Below are positions 39,341 to 48,043 of a DNA stretch of 64,000 bases, one piece after another. Under the pieces are notes generated by a model. It ran no database searches, was not told where the DNA came from, and saw only the letters and a program-made list of their open reading frames with translations. The DNA is from an uncultured Muribaculaceae bacterium (lineage in GTDB: Bacteria > Bacillota_I > Bacilli_A > RF39 > UBA660). Numbering within the stretch: position 1 is the first letter of the stretch; each line of letters begins with the position of its first letter. Location of the stretch: the NCBI GenBank assembly GCA_964371025.1, contig CAYJKH010000002.1, forward strand, positions 58,929 through 122,928, in the 5' to 3' direction. A program made the position numbers and the translations under genes.

Positions 39341-40309
39341 ATGTTTAAAAAAATAAAAAGTTTATTTAAAAATAAACAACAAGAAGAAAATATAAAAGTA
39401 TATGAAGAAGGATTAACTAAATCAAGAGAAAATTTTGTTTCTAAGTTAACTAATTTAACTAATAAATACAAAAAAATTAATGATGAGTATTTTGAAGAAT
39501 TAGAAGAAATTTTAATTATGGCTGATATTGGAGTTAATACAGTTATCAATTATATAGATAAATTGAAAAAAAGAGCAAGTGATGAGAAGATTGAAAATAC
39601 TTCAGATTTAAAAGAATTAATAGTAGATGAATTATTTATTATATATGTAAATGATGAAGTACTATCAGATAAAATTAATTTTACAAAAGATGAATGCTCA
39701 GTTTTATTATTTGTAGGAGTTAATGGAGTTGGAAAAACTACCACGATTGGTAAAATAGCTTATAACTTGAAAAAAGAAGGGAAGAAAGTATTATTAGTAG
39801 GAGCAGATACTTTTAGAGCAGGAGCTGTCGAACAACTAAGACTTTGGTCAAAAAGAATTGATGTTGACTTTTATTCCAAAGAACAAGGGAGTGATCCTAG
39901 TAGTGTTGTATATGATGGAGTAGTAAGAGGAATGGACGGATATGATGTAGTACTAATTGATACTGCAGGCCGTTTACAAAATAAAACTAATTTAATGAAT
40001 GAATTAGAAAAAATATCCAAAGTAATTAAAAATTTATTAGGTAGAGAAGTTAATGAAACTCTTTTAGTAGTAGATGCTACAACTGGTCAAAACGGAATAT
40101 CTCAAGCTAAAGCTTTTAAAGAAATAACAGATATAACAGGAATTGTTTTAACAAAGTTAGATGGTACTGCAAAAGGAGGAATAGTTTTAGCAATTAAAGA
40201 AGAGGTAGGATTACCAGTTAAATATATTGGACTAGGTGAGAAAAAGGAAGATATAGAAAAATTTGATATAGAAAAATATATTTATGGATTATTTAAAGAT
40301 TTTATATAG
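39341..40309 (+). CDS. ftsY: signal recognition particle receptor FtsY
   Basis: NG domain GVNGVGKTTT, DTAGR, TKLDG. Confidence 0.92.
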   Translation: MFKKIKSLFKNKQQEENIKVYEEGLTKSRENFVSKLTNLTNKYKKINDEYFEELEEILIMADIGVNTVINYIDKLKKRASDEKIENTSDLKELIVDELFIIYVNDEVLSDKINFTKDECSVLLFVGVNGVGKTTTIGKIAYNLKKEGKKVLLVGADTFRAGAVEQLRLWSKRIDVDFYSKEQGSDPSSVVYDGVVRGMDGYDVVLIDTAGRLQNKTNLMNELEKISKVIKNLLGREVNETLLVVDATTGQNGISQAKAFKEITDITGIVLTKLDGTAKGGIVLAIKEEVGLPVKYIGLGEKKEDIEKFDIEKYIYGLFKDFI

Positions 40310-40318
40310 GAGATAATT

Positions 40319-40627
40319 ATGGAAGAAATAGGATATTTAACTCAAATTTATGATTTGTATAAAGAGTTATTAACGCCAAAGCAAAAAGAATACTTTGAAG
40401 AATATTATTTTGATAATTTATCATTAGCAGAAATAAGTGAAAATTATAATGTTAGTAGAAATGCAATTTATAATCATATTAAAGCAACAACGGATAAACT
40501 AAATTATTATGAAAGTAAATTAAAGTTATTAGAAAAACTTAATAACTTAGAAGAAATATTAAAAGATATAGAAGATTTAAAAGTAAAAGAGAAAATTGAA
40601 AAAATATATATGATGGGAGCAGAATAA
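40319..40627 (+). CDS. ylxM: YlxM-like putative helix-turn-helix protein (UPF0122)
   Basis: 102 aa immediately after ftsY. LSLAEISENYNVSRNAIYNHI sigma-70 region-4-like HTH. Confidence 0.7.
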   Translation: MEEIGYLTQIYDLYKELLTPKQKEYFEEYYFDNLSLAEISENYNVSRNAIYNHIKATTDKLNYYESKLKLLEKLNNLEEILKDIEDLKVKEKIEKIYMMGAE

Positions 40628-40628
40628 T

Positions 40629-41933
40629 ATGAAATACCATTTTGTTGGAATAAAAGGTGCAGGGATGAGTTCACTTGCTCAAATAGTAAATGACTTAGGA
40701 GAACAAGTTCAAGGTAGTGATAAAGATATGTACTTCTTTACACAAGTTAAATTAGAAGAAAAAAATATTCCTTTTTATCCTTATGATAAAAACAATATTA
40801 GTAATGATATGGTTATTGTACAAGGGAACTCTATTGGTGATGATCATGAAGAAATAAAAAGAGCAAAAGAATTAAATTTAAAAATATTAACATACCAAGA
40901 TATGTTAAAAGAATTAACAAAAAAATATAAATCAATTACTATTACAGGGTGTCATGGAAAAACAACTACAACCTCTATGTTAGCTCATGTACTTGATAAT
41001 ATATGTGGTACAAATTACTTAATTGGAGATGCTACAGGCCATGCTAATAAAGAAAATGAATATTTTGTTTTAGAAGCGTGTGAATATAAAAGGCATTTTC
41101 TAAATTATATTCCAAGCTATACAATTATAACTAATATTGATTTAGATCATCCCGATTACTTTAAAGATATTGAAGATGTTATAGCTGCATATCAAGAACA
41201 TGTTATGTTAGCAGAAAAGATGGTTATTGCTTGTGGAGATGATCCTTATACAAGAAAATTAAAACCAAATGTTGATATTGTATTTTATGGAGTAAATGAA
41301 AATAATGATATTGTAGCTAAAAATATAAAAAAAACAAGCGAAGCTACTAATTTTTCAGTATATATAAAAGGAAATCATTATGGTGATTTTAGTCTACCTT
41401 TATTCGGAGACCATATGTTACTTAATGCTTTATCGGTAATTGCAGTATGCTATTATGAAAATATTAAAGTAGAAGAAGTAGAAAAGTATTTAAAAACCTT
41501 TAAAGGGGCTACTAGAAGATACTCTGAAACAAAAGTTTTAAATAATATAGTAGTAGATGATTATGCGCACCATCCAACAGAAGTAGAAGCTACTATTAAA
41601 ACTACTAAACAAAAGTATCCAAATAAAAAAATAGTAGGAATTTTTCAACCTCACACATTTTCAAGAACAAAAACTTTTGCTAAAGAATTTATTGATATAT
41701 TTAAAACCTTAGACTATGTATATATATTTAATATTCATCCAGCACGAGAAGTACAAGAAGATTTTAAGAATATTACTAGTGATATTATTATAAATAATTT
41801 AGATAATGCTGAATCTATTAGTATAGATGAATATAATAAACTTATGAAATGGGATAACACAGTATTATTATTTATGAGTCCAAATGATATATCAAAGATA
41901 GAAAAAGAATATATAAGTGCAAAGAATAATTAG
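40629..41933 (+). CDS. murC: UDP-N-acetylmuramate--L-alanine ligase
   Basis: N-terminus YHFVGIKGAGMSSLAQIV...VQGSD almost identical to Bacillus MurC. P-loop GCHGKTTTTSM. Confidence 0.9.
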   Translation: MKYHFVGIKGAGMSSLAQIVNDLGEQVQGSDKDMYFFTQVKLEEKNIPFYPYDKNNISNDMVIVQGNSIGDDHEEIKRAKELNLKILTYQDMLKELTKKYKSITITGCHGKTTTTSMLAHVLDNICGTNYLIGDATGHANKENEYFVLEACEYKRHFLNYIPSYTIITNIDLDHPDYFKDIEDVIAAYQEHVMLAEKMVIACGDDPYTRKLKPNVDIVFYGVNENNDIVAKNIKKTSEATNFSVYIKGNHYGDFSLPLFGDHMLLNALSVIAVCYYENIKVEEVEKYLKTFKGATRRYSETKVLNNIVVDDYAHHPTEVEATIKTTKQKYPNKKIVGIFQPHTFSRTKTFAKEFIDIFKTLDYVYIFNIHPAREVQEDFKNITSDIIINNLDNAESISIDEYNKLMKWDNTVLLFMSPNDISKIEKEYISAKNN

Positions 41934-42016
41934 TTTATTCTTTTTTTTTTATTACTTGTAAAAAAAAAGAAAAAAATATATAATATAATAAGAGTAGAAT
42001 AAAAGGAGTAAGGGTT

Positions 42017-44107
42017 ATGTTTAATAAAATAGTATATATAAGTGATAAAAGTGCTCATGTTAGTTTAAATACTGAAAAAGAAGTAACTATGAATTTAATG
42101 AATTTACACATAGTTTTTGATGATGGGATTAAACAAATTTTAGGAGAAATAGATGATTTAGATAAAAATATCGCTAAAATTAGATTTTTAGGAGAAATTG
42201 CTAATGATAGGCTATATTCAGGAGTTATTAGAAAACCAGCTATGGATGCAACTGTTAGAATTATTTCAAAAGAAGAAGTTCATTTAATAACAGGAGAAAA
42301 TAAAGCTGGGCAACTAAATTTAGGAGTTAGTCCTTTTTATAATGATTATCCAGTATACTTAGATGTAAATAGCTTCTTTTCAAATCACTTTTCGATTATT
42401 GGTAATAGTGGTTCTGGTAAAAGTTGTGGAGTATCTAGACTTATTCAAAATTTATTTTCAAATAAAAACTTATTCCCTTATAAATCGAATCTTTTATTTT
42501 TTGATTCATCTGGAGAATACTATAATGCATTTAAAGATATAAATAAAATAGATCCTAGTTATCATTTTAAATATATATCTACTAATGAAACGGATCCTAT
42601 GGTAGAAAAGTTAAGAATACCAATTTGGTTATTAAATGCAACAGATGTAGCATTATTATTACAAATAACAAATCATTCCCAAATACCAATTGTGGAAAGA
42701 ATGTTAAAACTAGCTAATATTTTTGCGCAAACTGGGGATGAAGCTAATAATTATAAAAACTACTTAATTGCAAAAGCAATAATGACTATTTTATATACTA
42801 ATGAAACAGCACCGAATAAAAGAAATGAAATTTTTTCAATTATAGCAAACTGTAGTACAGATCAATTTCATCTTGAGGCCGATCTTCAAGGAATTGGGTA
42901 TACAAGAAAATTTAGAGAATGCTTTTTAATTGATAACAGTGGTCAATTTACTGAAAGTGTTTTATTAACTGAATATATTTCTTCGTTTATAAAACCAGAA
43001 TATGAAACTTATGAGATTAATGAGAAAAATGCTTATAATTTAGAAACTTTAGAGAATGCTTTAAGTTTTACTTTAATAAGTGAAGGATGGTTAAGGAATG
43101 AACAAACTTATGGAGATGCTGTAACTATAAAAGTAAGATTACATTCTTTAATAACAGGAGAGTTAGCAAAATATTTTGATTATCAAGCAAATGCAACACT
43201 AGATAGTTTCTTATCTTCATTATTAATAGATAGTAATAGAAAATATCAAATTGTTAATATTAATTTTTCAGATGTTGATGATGACTTTGCAAAAGTAATT
43301 ACAAAAATATTTTCAAGAATGTTCTTTGATTTTGCAAAAGGATTAACTGATAGAGCAACAATTCCTTTTCATTTAATTATTGAAGAAGCTCATAGATATA
43401 TTCAAAATGATAGAGATAGATTCTTGTTTGGATATAATATATTTGAAAGAATAGCAAAAGAAGGAAGAAAGTATGGAGTTATTTTAGGATTAATTACCCA
43501 AAGACCTGTTGAACTTTCTGATACAGTAATTTCACAATGTTCTAACTTTTTAATATTCAAAATGAACCATCCTGTAGATGTGGAATATATTAGAAAGATG
43601 CTACCTAATATTAGTGATGAAATTGTTGAAAAACAAAAAACATTACAAGCAGGGACATGTTTAGGATTTGGATTTGCTTTTAAAATTCCAATCATTGTAA
43701 AATTAGAAATGCCAAACCCTTCACCATTAAGTGGAAGTGTTAACATTTACGGAGCGTGGAATGGTAATAAACCACAAAGCAACGTTGTAATACAAGAAGA
43801 TATTCCAGATCCAATGCCAATAGTAAATAAAGTAGTGGAAGCGGTTAAAGAACCAGTTGCAGAACCAGTATTACAAATACAAGCAGAAGCACCAACGATT
43901 CCAGTAGTGCAATCAGAGGTACAAGCAGCAGAACCAGTATTACAAATTCAAACAGAAGTACAACCAGAAATTCAACAGTCAGTTGTAGCAATCCCAGAAG
44001 TACAACATCAAGTTGCACCACAAGTGGAGATTCCTTTGCCGCAGCCTGCAGTTCAAGCATCAGTACAATCTGTTGATATAAACCAATTAACATCACTAGG
44101 AGAATAA
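42017..44107 (+). CDS. HerA/FtsK-superfamily (DUF87-like) ATPase with N-terminal HAS-barrel-like domain and C-terminal P/Q/V/E-rich repeat tail
   Basis: Walker A GNSGSGKS. Walker B region HLIIEEAHRYI. C-terminal GLITQRPVELSDTVISQCSNFLIFKMNHP block typical of HerA-like ATPases. Tail PVAEPVLQIQ... repeats. Confidence 0.65.
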   Translation: MFNKIVYISDKSAHVSLNTEKEVTMNLMNLHIVFDDGIKQILGEIDDLDKNIAKIRFLGEIANDRLYSGVIRKPAMDATVRIISKEEVHLITGENKAGQLNLGVSPFYNDYPVYLDVNSFFSNHFSIIGNSGSGKSCGVSRLIQNLFSNKNLFPYKSNLLFFDSSGEYYNAFKDINKIDPSYHFKYISTNETDPMVEKLRIPIWLLNATDVALLLQITNHSQIPIVERMLKLANIFAQTGDEANNYKNYLIAKAIMTILYTNETAPNKRNEIFSIIANCSTDQFHLEADLQGIGYTRKFRECFLIDNSGQFTESVLLTEYISSFIKPEYETYEINEKNAYNLETLENALSFTLISEGWLRNEQTYGDAVTIKVRLHSLITGELAKYFDYQANATLDSFLSSLLIDSNRKYQIVNINFSDVDDDFAKVITKIFSRMFFDFAKGLTDRATIPFHLIIEEAHRYIQNDRDRFLFGYNIFERIAKEGRKYGVILGLITQRPVELSDTVISQCSNFLIFKMNHPVDVEYIRKMLPNISDEIVEKQKTLQAGTCLGFGFAFKIPIIVKLEMPNPSPLSGSVNIYGAWNGNKPQSNVVIQEDIPDPMPIVNKVVEAVKEPVAEPVLQIQAEAPTIPVVQSEVQAAEPVLQIQTEVQPEIQQSVVAIPEVQHQVAPQVEIPLPQPAVQASVQSVDINQLTSLGE

Positions 44108-44109
44108 AA

Positions 44110-44138
44110 GAAACAAGAGAATTACTCTTGTTTTTGTT
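44110..44138 (+). terminator. rho-independent terminator after the HerA-like gene
   Basis: AACAAGAG-aatt-ACTCTTGTT followed by a T-rich tract. Confidence 0.7.
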
Positions 44139-44184
44139 ATTTGTTTCTATACAATTTATAAATTAGATGATATAATTTATATAT

Positions 44185-44271
44185 GCCTGTGTGGTGGAAT
44201 TGGTAGACACGTTGGACTCAAAATCCAATGGTAGAAATATCATGTCGGTTCAAGTCCGACCACAGGTACCA
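44185..44271 (+). tRNA. tRNA-Leu (anticodon CAA), CCA encoded
   Basis: 87 nt. Acceptor GCCTGTG/CACAGGT. Anticodon loop CUCAAAA. Long variable arm. T-loop GGTTCAAGTCC. Confidence 0.9.
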
Positions 44272-44366: not shown

Positions 44367-45164
44367 ATGAAAAGGGTTAAACTAATATGTGGTTTATTTA
44401 CTATTATGATACTAACAGGATGTAATGGAACAGTAACTAAGGAGTTAAGACATAATGGATTTAGTGTATCTGATGAAGAATTTATTTGTGATTATTTAAT
44501 TAAGGATGATTTAGTAGTGGGAGAAGTAAAATATTTAACAAATGATTTTGCTATATTAAATAATAATAAAATTTACGCTCTTTCGATTGGACAAAAATTT
44601 AGTAATGAAAAAAATTGTAAAGAATTAAAAAGTATAAAAGTATTATCAATAATAGATAACAAAATATTCTTAGGAGAAGATAATAAATTATATTATACTC
44701 CTACTAGTAAAAGTGAAGTAATAGAGTGTACTACAAAAGAAGATGATTATTATTTATATAAAGCATTATTAAATGATGGAAATGTAAAAATTATTTCAAT
44801 TGATCAAACCAATGGCATTTATTATATTTTGTCAGATGATGGAAATGTATATGAAGTAACTATTAATACAGAAACGTTTACAGAGTTAAATCGAAAATTA
44901 ATATATGATCATAAGAATTATGATGGGAAGATTGTAGACTTTAATTTTTCTTATAATAATCTTAATAGTCAATTTATAAAAACAAACACAAGTTATTATA
45001 GAAATCAAACAACTAATTTAGAAGAGTGTAGTATGTATGCTGATGTTCTTTGTCAATATAAATTTAGTAAAGATACTGTTATGACTGAATATGAAGATAA
45101 TATTCTACATTATAATGGAGATTTATTAATAACAACTTATGGGAAAATATTTAATATAAGCTAG
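44367..45164 (+). CDS. lipoprotein (hypothetical)
   Basis: Signal peptide with lipobox ILTGCNG. Confidence 0.55.
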   Translation: MKRVKLICGLFTIMILTGCNGTVTKELRHNGFSVSDEEFICDYLIKDDLVVGEVKYLTNDFAILNNNKIYALSIGQKFSNEKNCKELKSIKVLSIIDNKIFLGEDNKLYYTPTSKSEVIECTTKEDDYYLYKALLNDGNVKIISIDQTNGIYYILSDDGNVYEVTINTETFTELNRKLIYDHKNYDGKIVDFNFSYNNLNSQFIKTNTSYYRNQTTNLEECSMYADVLCQYKFSKDTVMTEYEDNILHYNGDLLITTYGKIFNIS

Positions 45165-45187
45165 TATATTAGATTAAGAGGTGGAAT

Positions 45188-46060
45188 ATGAAAGTAGCAG
45201 AATTATGGAAAGATTATGAAATTATAGATGCATCAGCAGGAGAAAAATTAGAAAAATGGAAAGATATTATTTTACTCAGACCTGATCCAAGTATTATTTG
45301 GGATGATAGAAAATTATTAGAGGAATATAAAGATTCTATTAATGCAGTATATCATAGAAGTAATAAAGGTGGTGGACAGTGGGATAATTTAAAATATACA
45401 CCAGATAAATGGGAAGTGTCATATAAAAATCTAAAGTTTAATATTAAGCAAATGGGTTTTAAACATACGGGACTATTCCCAGAACAAGCTGTTAATTGGG
45501 ATTTCATGATTGAAAAAATTAAGACTCGAAAAGAAGAAGTAAAAGTTTTAAATTTATTTGCATATACAGGAGGGGCAACAGTTGCTTGTTTAAGTGCTGG
45601 AGCATCAGTAGTTCATGTTGATTCTTCTCGCGGTATGATAGAATGGTGTAAGGAAAATGTTAAATCTAATAATTTGGAAGATAAAAATATTAGATACTTA
45701 CATGATGATGTAGTTAAATTTGTTAAAAGAGAAATTAGAAGAGGAAATAAATATGATGCTATAGTAATGGATCCACCAAGTTATGGAAAAGGGGCTAATG
45801 GAGAAGTTTGGGATATTGAAAAAGATTTAACTAATTTAGTTAATTTAACAGTAGACTTATTAAGTGATAATGCTTTATTTTTCTTGATTAATTCTTATAC
45901 AACATCACTATCTTCAATATGTTTGAAAAATATGCTTGAATTAACTATAAATAAAAAAATACCAGGAAAAATTACAGCAGGAGAGATTGGATTACCAATA
46001 ACTAAAACAAATTTAATTTTACCTTGTGGTATATATGGGAAATGGGAAGATAATAAATAA
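45188..46060 (+). CDS. class I SAM-dependent methyltransferase (RlmI/RlmK-like rRNA methyltransferase core without PUA)
   Basis: LNLFAYTGGATVACL (motif I) and DAIVMDPPSYGK (motif IV DPP). Confidence 0.7.
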   Translation: MKVAELWKDYEIIDASAGEKLEKWKDIILLRPDPSIIWDDRKLLEEYKDSINAVYHRSNKGGGQWDNLKYTPDKWEVSYKNLKFNIKQMGFKHTGLFPEQAVNWDFMIEKIKTRKEEVKVLNLFAYTGGATVACLSAGASVVHVDSSRGMIEWCKENVKSNNLEDKNIRYLHDDVVKFVKREIRRGNKYDAIVMDPPSYGKGANGEVWDIEKDLTNLVNLTVDLLSDNALFFLINSYTTSLSSICLKNMLELTINKKIPGKITAGEIGLPITKTNLILPCGIYGKWEDNK

Positions 46061-46204
46061 TTTCATAAAAGTATAATAATGTTGGTATTAAAAAAGAGTA
46101 CTAATATTATTTTTTTTATTATGTAAATATACTAAAATATGTTTGCAATTGAATTATAAATTTGATATTATATTTATAAGATAGATAAAAGGGAGAAGAT
46201 TATT

Positions 46205-47221
46205 ATGGATAAATTTGATTTAAACTGGTTTACCTCAATACCAGGATTATTAATAACAGGGGGAGTTTTATTATTACTAATAGCAATTATTATGTTAATA
46301 GTAACAGGTAAAAAGTCTAAAAAGAAAACGGATGTTCAAACTCAGTCTACTCAAGAAGCACAACAATTAGCAGTAAATACTGCTGTGCCAATGGAGACAC
46401 AAGTTATGGATCCTATTCAACCAGGGCCAGTTGAACCAATTTCACAACCGATGATGAATGAAACTCCAGCAATTCCGGTAACACCTGAGCCGGCAGTGCA
46501 ACCAATGATGAATGAAATTCTAGCAATTCCAGTAACACCTGAGCCAGCAGTACAACCAATAATGAATGAAGTTCCTGCAGTTCCAATGGAGCCAGTGGCA
46601 CCGATGATGAATGAAATACCTATAGCAGCAATGCCTGCAGTAGAGCCAGTGGTTGCTATGCCAGAAGTAGTAATGCCTGTAGCAGAACCAGTAGTTGCTA
46701 TGCCAGAAGTAGCGATGCCTGTAGCAGAACCAGTAGTTGCTATGCCAGAAGTAGCAATGCCTGTAGCAGAACCAGTAGTTGCTATGCCAGAAGTAGCAAT
46801 GCCTGCAGTAGAACCAGTAGTTGCTATGCCAGAAGTAGCGATGCCTGCAGTAGAACCGGTAGTTGCTATGCCTGCAGTAGAACCAGCTCCAGTATCAATT
46901 TATGGTGGAGAATCTCCTATTATACCTAATATTAATATGAATACAGCACCTGCTAACCCAATATATGGGGGAGCAGATCCTTTAGAAAATACACAAACAG
47001 CATTAACTGCAATTGCACCAGCAATTGAACCAACACCAGTAGTTGAAACTACTCCAGTTATTGAACCAACTATAGCTCCAATGCCTCAAACAGTAATGCC
47101 AGCAGTTGCTCCAGTAGTTCAACCAATGCCAGTTATGCCTGGAGTTCAACAACCAATTCCACAGCCTGTACAACAACCAGTACAACCACAAGTTAGTGCA
47201 CAAAATATTGAAACAATGTAA
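46205..47221 (+). CDS. single-pass membrane protein with long Pro/Val/Ala/Met/Glu-rich tandem repeats
   Basis: N-terminal TM LLITGGVLLLLIAIIMLIV. Three 19-aa repeats QPMMNE.PAIPVTPEPAV, then five to six 14-aa repeats VAEPVVAMPEVAMP. Two PIYGG motifs. Confidence 0.55.
   Translation: MDKFDLNWFTSIPGLLITGGVLLLLIAIIMLIVTGKKSKKKTDVQTQSTQEAQQLAVNTAVPMETQVMDPIQPGPVEPISQPMMNETPAIPVTPEPAVQPMMNEILAIPVTPEPAVQPIMNEVPAVPMEPVAPMMNEIPIAAMPAVEPVVAMPEVVMPVAEPVVAMPEVAMPVAEPVVAMPEVAMPVAEPVVAMPEVAMPAVEPVVAMPEVAMPAVEPVVAMPAVEPAPVSIYGGESPIIPNINMNTAPANPIYGGADPLENTQTALTAIAPAIEPTPVVETTPVIEPTIAPMPQTVMPAVAPVVQPMPVMPGVQQPIPQPVQQPVQPQVSAQNIETM
46443..46613 (+). repeat. about three copies of a 57-bp tandem repeat inside the CDS
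   Basis: caaccRatgatgaatgaaaYtcYagcaattccRgtaacacctgagccRgcagtR reiterated. Confidence 0.6.
46633..46890 (+). repeat. five to six copies of a 42-bp tandem repeat inside the CDS
   Basis: gcctgYagYagaRccagtRgttgctatgccagaagtagYRat near-identical units. Confidence 0.7.
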
Positions 47222-47242
47222 TATAGAAGGTGGAGGAATAAA

Positions 47243-48043
47243 ATGAAGGGTTTACTAAGATTTATAATAAATACATGTTTGGCATTAATTATCGTATCAG
47301 CTATATTTTCTACTTTCTTATTCTTTAATACAGATGAAGATGGAGTTATTAGTATAAATGATACAAGTTTAATTCCAATAACAAATAGTGATTTAAGTCC
47401 TACCGTAGAAGAGATGGATTTAATATTTGTTAAAGCAATTACTAATTATGATGATATTGCAAAAAATGATGTTATTTCATATAAGAAAATAACAAATGAA
47501 AAAATGACAATTGAAACTAAAAGAGTATATTTAATTAATAAGACAGATGATGGATATACTTTTATTACAAAAACAGATACTGGTAATGTAGCTAATCAAG
47601 ATACAGTTAAAGCAAGTGATATTATTGGTAAATGGAATAACCAAAAAGTACTATTTGTAGGAGCTTATTTTGAATTTATTACTTCTATTATTGGATTTAT
47701 AGCAGTTGTTATAATACCTTTAACAGTATTAGTGATATTATTAATTGCTACTATTATTCAAAAACAAAAAAAGGTAGTAAAAGAAGCTGAAGAAGATAAT
47801 ATATCAGTAGAAACTAATCACTATGAGCATACTCAAGTATTAGGTAAAATTACAGAAGATAATATTATGGATTATGATAAAAAGAAATTAGAAGTAGAAA
47901 ATTCTGAAGTTGCTAAGGGAGTAAAAGAAGAAAAACCAACAATTCAAGAAGAAGTAGATAATGTAGAGCAAATCTTAAACAAAGAAGCTACTGCAGAAGA
48001 AACTAAAGAAGTAAAAAAAGAAGAGGATATTGAAGTTTTATAA
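47243..48043 (+). CDS. SipW/ER-type (S26B) signal-peptidase-like membrane protein with divergent catalytic motif and acidic C-terminal tail
   Basis: N-terminal TM, region LIPITNSDLSPTVEEMDLIFVK resembling the SGSMEPT..GD..V box, second TM near residue 150. Catalytic Ser/His assignment uncertain. Confidence 0.4.
   Translation: MKGLLRFIINTCLALIIVSAIFSTFLFFNTDEDGVISINDTSLIPITNSDLSPTVEEMDLIFVKAITNYDDIAKNDVISYKKITNEKMTIETKRVYLINKTDDGYTFITKTDTGNVANQDTVKASDIIGKWNNQKVLFVGAYFEFITSIIGFIAVVIIPLTVLVILLIATIIQKQKKVVKEAEEDNISVETNHYEHTQVLGKITEDNIMDYDKKKLEVENSEVAKGVKEEKPTIQEEVDNVEQILNKEATAEETKEVKKEEDIEVL

Follow-up and report, generated by a model that had tools for sequence, protein, structure and literature searches.

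HerA ATPases have been encountered in bacteria as scaffolds of anti-phage systems (SIR2-HerA and DUF4297-HerA), as partners of the NurA nuclease and, in Thermus thermophilus, as the HerA/FtsK-like protein TdtA. SIR2-HerA, also called Nezha, is found, for example, on plasmids of Listeria and Enterococcus and in E. coli (Protein Data Bank (PDB) entries 8j4u and 8sub), and structures of DUF4297-HerA are available as entries 9c1m, 8ziq and 8xau (PMC11291478; bioRxiv 10.1101/2024.10.24.620088). The HerA-NurA complexes of Sulfolobus (4d2i), Thermococcus (9x1m) and Deinococcus are hexameric translocases of double-stranded DNA (dsDNA) with a housekeeping role in DNA maintenance (PMC9960219, PMC3326311). 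TdtA is an ATPase for DNA donation that works without a NurA, Sir2 or DUF4297 partner, within a machinery for DNA transfer (transjugation) (PMC5365140). FtsK, SpoIIIE and SftA are members of the same superfamily. In FtsK a low-complexity segment rich in proline and glutamine serves as a tether. The FtsK-HerA superfamily further includes ATPases that translocate proteins, such as EssC/EccC of the type VII secretion system (T7SS). Here we describe the gene for a HerA-like ATPase in a stretch of 64,000 nucleotides (the window) from contig CAYJKH010000002.1 of an uncultured gut bacterium of the RF39 lineage of the Bacilli (GenBank assembly GCA_964371025.1). The motor that the gene encodes is well known, but its evolutionary and genomic setting is new, as is an accessory architecture that combines tail peptides with a pair of paralogues. 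The gene points to an undescribed housekeeping use of a motor that is known in bacteria mainly from defence and DNA-end resection. Our literature searches turned up no account of a conserved HerA family that lacks a partner in these bacteria. Unlike TdtA, the family of the window protein is chromosomal, syntenic and present throughout its lineage.

Family assignment and overall structure

The membership of the 696-residue protein in the HerA clade is secure. The protein scores 78 bits with Pfam DUF87 (PF01935), for which the cutoff is 23.2 bits, it matches the PADLOC HerA model PDLC04102 with an E-value of 9e-107, and all of its significant sequence matches in the PDB are HerA-family ATPases. 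The best of these is entry 9c1m, the HerA subunit of the HerA-DUF4297 anti-phage system, with E=3e-47 for the single sequence and E=2e-67 for a family profile. The closest equivalog model in NCBIfam is HerA_antiphage_2, yet the score of 166 bits lies far below its cutoff of 850, and the same is true for HerA_antiphage (142 bits against 800) and for two equivalogs of the HerA that functions in double-strand break (DSB) repair (110.8 bits against 800 and 89.4 against 970).

Two AlphaFold models were calculated. The model from a shallow alignment, with sequences of 64-69% identity, has a pLDDT of 42.9, and the HAS-barrel alone is usable in it, while the model from an alignment spanning two paralogue clades reaches a pLDDT of 87.0 and a pTM of 0.84. 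The latter comprises an N-terminal HAS-barrel, a RecA-like core and a helical insert. The N-terminal strands are located at residues 2-82 in both models. The full-length model superposes on solved HerA chains, and the 50 best matches of a Foldseek search against the PDB are all HerA chains from DUF4297-HerA, SIR2-HerA and archaeal HerA, with a probability of 1.0 and TM scores of 0.56-0.76. No transmembrane segments were found in the protein. An earlier reading of the window, made from the sequence alone, had assigned the protein to the HerA/FtsK superfamily on the basis of a beta-barrel-like N-terminal region and the motifs GNSGSGKS, HLIIEEAHRYI, TQRP and SQCSN. The assignment is borne out by the profile scores and the Foldseek matches, the barrel by both models, and each of the four motifs is present in the translation.

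In addition to the HAS-barrel, the protein has a RecA core in which the Walker A, Walker B and arginine-finger motifs are all intact (Table 1). The Walker B motif is part of the HLIIEEAHRYI box at residues 452-462. In the KEGRKYG box, G483 and K485 are invariant, and R484, the probable arginine finger, is conserved in at least 90% of the sequences of the family alignment and invariant in the alignment of clades A and D (see below). The short insertion that follows strand β5 consists of two helices (residues 519-528 and 534-541), flanked by strands 510-514 and 547-552. Judged from the model, it may correspond to the 'TR motif' that has been described for dsDNA-translocating HerA/FtsK proteins (PMC9960219). 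Residue R526 corresponds to an arginine or lysine in four of five aligned solved HerAs.

It is evident from these comparisons that DUF4297-HerA is the best match among the known systems, both by sequence profile and by structure (Foldseek E=2e-30). The two proteins share the HAS-barrel, the RecA core, a helical bundle and the EEAHxY, KEGRKYG, SQRP and SQCxNF motifs. Their sequence identity is only about 20-30%, and the helical insert (approximately residues 220-412) remains unaligned at the sequence level. Unlike its defence homologue, the window gene has no adjacent DUF4297 gene, is chromosomal, syntenic, core-like and slowly evolving, and its product carries a long disordered tail with a terminal motif. 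Compared with FtsK, SpoIIIE and SftA, the window protein is a member of the HerA clade, with a HAS-barrel and without a membrane anchor or gamma domain, and its tail is C-terminal instead of forming an internal linker; canonical FtsK moreover coexists with the family in related genomes. What it may have in common with these pumps, in addition to the superfamily, is a constitutive cellular role, and one of its paralogues lies beside division genes. With the HerA-NurA complexes it has the dsDNA-translocase fold and a TR-like insertion in common, and possibly a housekeeping role in DNA maintenance; it differs from them by its disordered tail and its pair of paralogues.

Conservation and genomic context

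A search with the core of the protein against 5.8 billion proteins yielded 8000 scored matches, and its close homologues number in the thousands. Apart from the window's own sequence at 100%, the best 120 of these are 68-75% identical over the entire core, in proteins of 663-790 amino acids. A scan of one genome per GTDB species revealed a relative in at least 590 genomes. The 80 best of these are all uncultured gut metagenome-assembled genomes labelled Bacilli, Tenericutes or Mycoplasmatota, and include Candidatus Onthousia, 'Coprobacillus sp. CAG:605' and 'Firmicutes bacterium CAG:321'.

Open reading frames (ORFs) were called in all related loci and the neighbouring genes were clustered, which resolved several synteny groups. 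Group A (loci L001-L019) takes in every locus whose product is at least 52% identical to the window protein. Its order is ftsY, often a gene for a small membrane protein, ylxM and the HerA-like gene, which in most loci is directly followed by ffh. RNase J and RNase Y are encoded upstream, and rpoZ and recX lie downstream. The immediate upstream neighbour of the HerA-like gene is ylxM in 17 loci, at a distance of 8-21 nt in members without a tail; the gaps to ylxM and ffh in these tail-less members go down to 5-26 nt. The ancestral position of the gene is within this signal recognition particle (SRP) block, ftsY-ylxM-[HerA]-ffh, in a large group of gut Bacilli that are uncultured and have small, low-GC genomes.

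Since the group A loci had been selected by their similarity to HerA, an independent sample was drawn via the FtsY protein of the window, comprising eight FtsY relatives (70-77% identical) on contigs outside the list of HerA matches. All eight carry a gene for a protein of 688-845 amino acids between ylxM and ffh, and all eight products align to core residues 1-585 of the window protein with 69-73% identity and an intact Walker A motif. In the tailed group A loci the HerA core is 67-75% identical to that of the window, compared with 65-74% for FtsY, 76-79% for RNase J, 72-75% for RNase Y and 48-56% for YlxM. With its fixed position in the eight FtsY-selected loci and an identity like that of FtsY, RNase J and RNase Y, the HerA-like gene behaves as a vertically inherited core gene. 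The sequence-only reading had regarded the gene as an orphan and as the most defence-like or novel-machine-like gene of the window, and had named universal conservation as a single-copy core gene with a known housekeeping homologue as a finding that would refute this view; such conservation is to a large extent what the independent relatives display.

Some further features of the group A and related loci concern the neighbours of the block. The small predicted membrane protein between ftsY and ylxM (cluster c5, 81-129 amino acids, no Pfam match) is present in 13 group A loci (among L001-L018) and absent from the window. In two loci a Dam-like methyltransferase gene (MethyltransfD12) lies shortly downstream of ffh (L139, 12234..13027; L142, 11406..13002), in L142 followed by a serine recombinase gene; this methyltransferase is possibly a small mobile insertion beside the conserved block. 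In L003 (767..4386, on a contig of 1.42 Mb) the calls for RNase Y and RNase J are broken into several pieces, which probably represent assembly frameshifts and not pseudogenes; both genes are intact in L004 and L005.

Paralogous clades

In a neighbour-joining tree the synteny groups map onto clades, and the family of the gut Bacilli is separate from more distant representatives of HerA. Group B (approximately 48-53% identity to the window protein) is found among gatA/gatB, the gene for a ThiF protein, gpsA, rarA/mgsA and the gene for a Xer-type recombinase, group C (approximately 45%) follows yqeG-yqeH, and group D (40-44%) precedes sepF-divIVA. The thousands of close relatives of group D are annotated merely as 'ATP-binding protein'. 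Assembly SIG199 contains members of both A and D (L007 and L078), and CGS3Y1-bin4 contains members of both A and C (L017 and L059). This co-occurrence, which rests on these two assemblies, identifies the groups as ancient paralogues. Of the refuting finding named in the sequence-only reading, the conserved core status is thus largely observed, but the family is not single-copy, with two ancient paralogue clades, and a characterised housekeeping homologue was not found.

The region that is most shared between the two clades is the RecA core, with an identity of 0.48-0.58. In contrast, the helical insert shows an identity of 0.87 and 0.79 within the two clades and of 0.35 between them, and has 48/91 clade-specific fixed differences. 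The paralogues thus differ in their helical insert and in their tail peptide, which suggests two motors that have a common engine and different clients.

In some representatives of the family the catalytic motifs are degenerate: P0123 has GNDGFGKS as Walker A and IDNAH as Walker B, and the Walker B motif reads ILEKAD in P0133 and IIESAE in P0138. These substitutions suggest catalytically impaired paralogues, which might be partners in mixed rings.

The C-terminal tail

The tail of the window protein is rich in valine (19%), glutamine (16%), proline (14%) and glutamate (11%) and contains two copies of AEPVLQIQ. The sequence-only reading had considered a repeat tail of roughly 100 residues to be atypical of HerA. 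The tail, of 111 residues, is indeed atypical when set against the solved HerAs, but within the clade such tails are the rule. Close orthologues nearly always carry a tail of 78-419 residues, the sequence and composition of which vary freely, and the basal members of group A (L014-L019, 583-606 amino acids) have none.

Despite this variability, most tails of the clade end in a short peptide that recurs. The common form is G-x-P-L-[VI]-x-[LI]-[TS]-x-[DE], for example GxPLVxLTxE, and a second form reads [SV]-[DS]-L-[TN]-[LI]-D, followed by acidic residues. The end of the window protein, SVDINQLTSLGE, can be compared with SVDLTLDDTDDD, VSLNIDDDD and PLIDLTLDDD in relatives. In a set of 29 non-redundant tails, the last 14 residues are more alike than interior windows of the tails, with a mean best 7-mer score of 15.3 versus 10.2. 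The tails of group D comprise 0-109 residues, are rich in asparagine, glutamine and serine, and often end in N-[RK]-[FY]-[IF]-x. The combination of a hypervariable linker and a conserved terminal peptide is typical of a flexible tether that carries a docking motif, which is the likely role of the tail here.

Proposed function

On balance, we consider it probable that the HerA-like protein is a constitutive hexameric translocase, most likely of dsDNA, that acts in chromosome maintenance and is tethered or regulated by its tail. By analogy with the family, six subunits would form a ring in which ATP is hydrolysed at the subunit interfaces, and a polymer, most probably dsDNA, would be threaded through the central pore. 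In favour of dsDNA as the likely substrate are the fold, which is of the HerA/FtsK type, the TR-like insertion and R526 as a conserved basic residue. The motor would have a constitutive role in the maintenance of the chromosome, either in division-coupled handling of DNA or in recombinational repair, and not in defence against phages. The disordered tail most likely serves as a flexible tether with a short docking peptide at its end. This peptide would either bring the motor to a partner whose gene lies at another site or control the activity of the motor. Some of the neighbours hint at DNA transactions or cell division, i.e., sepF-divIVA in group D, the genes for a Xer-type recombinase and RarA in group B, and recA and recX near group A. 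As an assignment from conservation and neighbours, the role in chromosome maintenance has only moderate support, since in a small genome housekeeping genes will adjoin whatever gene is considered, and the contexts of the groups share no single theme.

Several observations weigh against this assignment. In genomes of 1.4-1.8 Mb nearly any gene has housekeeping neighbours, and the four contexts in which the family occurs (the SRP block, yqeG-yqeH, sepF-divIVA and ThiF-gpsA-rarA-xer) are without a common theme. The core status was sampled among close relatives only, with FtsY identities of 70-77%. The carriers are all uncultured, and every function beyond family membership is one that we infer. 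The closest relatives of known function are the defence HerAs, which depend on an effector and have hardly any activity by themselves (PMC11291478). A HerA that truly works without a partner would therefore be an exception, and the genome may encode a partner at another site. Furthermore, the equivalent of K363, the essential pore lysine of Sulfolobus HerA, could not be mapped, and the tail-end motif of the window protein is a weak variant.

Less probably, the paralogues can be imagined as a hitherto unrecognised pair of housekeeping HerAs, one encoded in the SRP block and the other next to sepF-divIVA or yqeG-yqeH. Each would be tethered by its disordered tail and the terminal peptide of its clade to a different client, such as components of the divisome or the replisome, and together they would form an essential, lineage-specific machine for the chromosome or for division. 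Such a use of HerA in bacteria would be distinct both from defence and from resection with NurA. If the general assignment is true, a lineage-wide, slowly evolving, operon-embedded and partner-less HerA would add a new housekeeping role for this motor, and the existence of two ancient paralogues and of putative docking peptides at the tail ends strengthens the housekeeping case. It would also mean that calls of 'defence' genes from profile matches only, such as the strong PADLOC match of the window protein, can mislead unless the gene context is considered. A core machine specific to this lineage would inform on the basic cell biology of its carriers, which are uncultured bacteria with reduced genomes that abound in the guts of humans and animals. 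Objects that can be tested are offered by two short tail peptides and the paralogue-specific helical domain.

Among the alternatives, the one that survives best is that the protein is the helicase of a HerA-NurA-type complex for the resection of DSB ends, with the nuclease encoded elsewhere, and serves as the main resection machine of the lineage. Such a function would fit the HerA fold including the HAS-barrel platform, which is the docking site of NurA in archaea and Deinococcus. The genes recA, recX, recG and RarA/Xer are found in the neighbourhoods, and housekeeping-like conservation suits a repair enzyme. It is nevertheless an unlikely explanation. The known herA-nurA genes are operonic, but in none of the loci was a NurA-like gene, mre11 or rad50 found adjacent to HerA, and the scores against the DSB-repair equivalogs are a small fraction of their cutoffs. 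Two paralogues with different tail peptides and helical inserts would be unexpected for a single resection complex.

A motor that works on a substrate other than DNA, for example in protein targeting or secretion or on RNA, in cooperation with the surrounding SRP components, appears slightly less probable still. The case for it is the ancestral place of the gene in the ylxM-ffh operon after ftsY, with the short intergenic gaps of the tail-less members, together with the kinship to protein-translocating ATPases such as EssC/EccC and the proximity of RNase Y and RNase J. The link with SRP is not shared by the other paralogue and the sister clades, however, and both the fold and the TR-like insertion are those of the dsDNA-translocating HerA/FtsK proteins. 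The protein also lacks a membrane segment, and no secretion-system genes were found nearby.

That the protein is an anti-phage HerA, acting by itself or together with an effector (Sir2, DUF4297 or another nuclease) whose gene lies at another site, was suggested by its best profile and structural matches, which are defence HerAs (the PADLOC model and entries 9c1m, 8ziq, 8xau and 8j4u), and by HerA_antiphage_2 as the top NCBIfam match. The score against the latter is far below the cutoff, and conservation comparable to that of FtsY and RNase J and the operon-like position in all eight FtsY-selected relatives point away from an accessory defence gene. No gene for SIR2, DUF4297 or a similar effector was found beside HerA, either in the window or in any of over 90 related loci. 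Members of the clade are absent from the viral contigs, plasmids and phages searched. The best matches on viral contigs are 24-38% identical, most of them starting near residue 50-118, with one fragment of 140 residues reaching 43%, and the best plasmid match has an identity of about 31%. The nearest mobile relatives are the plasmid HerAs of Listeria and Enterococcus, with 29-31% identity over residues 52-581. These are true SIR2-HerA pairs, in which the SIR2 gene overlaps herA by 8 nt and recombinase genes lie alongside; they have the HerA fold in common with the window protein, whereas the overlapping SIR2 gene and the plasmid and recombinase setting are found in no member of its clade. With neither an adjacent effector, nor a score above an equivalog cutoff, nor a patchy or mobile distribution, a defence function is very improbable, and neither the defence-like character attributed to the gene in the sequence-only reading nor an accessory nature is supported.

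A substitute for a lost FtsK/SpoIIIE as the pump for chromosome segregation is hardly credible, since the common superfamily, the P/Q-rich low-complexity region recalling the FtsK linker and the paralogue adjoining sepF-divIVA stand against a score for Pfam FtsK_SpoIIIE of 23.9 bits, just under the cutoff of 24, the lack of an N-terminal membrane domain, and motifs (GNSGSGKS, ITQRPV) that differ from those of FtsK (G[AS]TGSGKS, ATQRPS). For the relatives examined such a replacement can be rejected: a canonical FtsK/SpoIIIE (HLLVAG[AS]TGSGKS...ATQRPS) is encoded within 10 kb of a HerA-like paralogue in five loci (L039, L048, L066, L067 and L075). In L048, HerA-sepF-divIVA is followed by one unidentified gene, then by a gene for a DnaE/PolC-like polymerase and finally by ftsK.

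Features of the locus

The coordinates of the gene, its motifs and domains, and its flanking elements are collected in Table 1. The sequence-only reading had credited the gene with its own promoter and its own terminator. Promoter-like sites occur in this region at chance frequency (49 observed versus 49.4 expected in DNA of 25% GC), so that an own promoter is not demonstrated and the match carries little weight. The terminator is credible, because five such sites are observed where 1.0 is expected.

Table 1. Coordinates of the HerA-like gene, its motifs and domains, and neighbouring features in the window.
Feature	Position	Strand	Basis
ftsY, start of the block ftsY-ylxM-[HerA]-ffh	39341..40309	+	TIGR00064, 343 bits (cutoff 261)
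ylxM (UPF0122 DNA-binding protein)	40319..40627	+	NF045758, 93.6 bits (cutoff 80)
murC, between ylxM and the HerA-like gene	40629..41933	+	TIGR01082, 392 bits (cutoff 335)
Promoter-like hexamers TTGTAA-17-TATAAT	41956..41984	+	10/12 positions match; chance level
Ribosome-binding site AAGGAG, 8 nt before ATG	42003..42008	+	read from the sequence
HerA-clade ATPase gene, 696 aa	42017..44107	+	ORF call; DUF87, PADLOC, NCBIfam, PDB and structure matches
HAS-barrel domain, residues 1-95	42017..42301	+	all-beta, pLDDT 64-91 in both AlphaFold models
Walker A GNSGSGKS, residues 129-136	42401..42424	+	G129, G132, G134 and K135 invariant across the family
Helical-bundle insert, residues 215-402	42659..43222	+	most paralogue-specific domain; helices ~208-403 in the model
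Walker B HLIIEEAH, residues 452-459	43370..43393	+	E456, E457, A458 and H459 invariant in clades A and D
KEGRKYG box, residues 481-487	43457..43477	+	kept in solved HerAs
TQRP (residues 494-497) and SQCSN (506-510)	43496..43546	+	family alignments; comparison with solved HerAs
TR-motif-like insertion, residues 517-546	43565..43654	+	two short helices between β5 and β5b
Disordered V/Q/P/E-rich tail, residues 586-696 (111 aa)	43772..44104	+	composition; pLDDT 20-33, near-zero secondary structure
C-terminal short motif SVDINQLTSLGE	44069..44104	+	weak member of the clade tail-end motif, second form
Intrinsic terminator hairpin, 11 pairs, then T-rich run	44109..44135	+	sequence scan
tRNA-Leu(CAA), at the place of ffh in relatives	44185..44271	+	marks local rearrangement

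The window retains the gene order recA-murE-RNase Y-RNase J-ftsY-ylxM. Downstream of ylxM its arrangement (40629..44271) departs from that of all relatives examined. In this genome alone an inserted murC separates ylxM from the HerA-like gene, and ffh has given way to the tRNA-Leu(CAA) gene, which may mark a breakpoint or an insertion site, and to four genes (44367..48043) without a counterpart in the related loci. The placement of the HerA-like gene between murC and a tRNA gene, as well as the lack of a partner gene on either side, had been correctly seen from the sequence. Within the 64-kb window no second HerA copy, sepF, divIVA, yqeH, ffh or ftsK was found.

The proteins encoded in the flanks of the HerA region are a lipoprotein-like ORF, an rRNA-methyltransferase-like protein, a proline-rich membrane protein and a SipW-type signal peptidase, none of which is conserved beside HerA in relatives. 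No defence-type partner flanks the window gene, the flanking proteins having no match to a defence model except for a generic methyltransferase hit. This hit concerns the SAM-dependent methyltransferase at 45188..46060 (+), which matches the component mad2 of the PADLOC MADS system at 2e-19; its nearest NCBIfam models are rRNA enzymes of the RlmK/RlmL/RlmI type, with scores below their cutoffs. As it is not conserved beside HerA in other loci, the protein probably methylates RNA and has no part in defence. A link of the HerA-like protein itself with MADS was considered and rejected: the protein matches mad8 at 1e-15, but FtsY also matches mad8, which indicates generic domain similarity, and the methyltransferase, placed with the rRNA enzymes, adjoins HerA in no relative.

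Two antisense ORFs lie entirely within the HerA-like gene, at 43402..43746 (-) with 114 codons for amino acids and at 43845..44096 (-) with 83. The latter is a Leu/Val-rich mirror of the codons of the HerA tail, and both ORFs are probably spurious. Further downstream, the gene at 46205..47221 (+) encodes a protein of 338 amino acids with one N-terminal membrane segment, followed by tandem repeats rich in P, V, A, E and M; the repeats consist of a 42-nt unit present six times at 93% match and a 54-nt unit present 2.6 times. Directly downstream of it, at 47243..48043 (+), lies the gene for the SipW-type signal peptidase I (TIGR02228, 57.5 bits; cutoff 51.85). The presence of the 338-residue repeat protein implies that proline-rich low complexity is not unique to the HerA tail in this genome.

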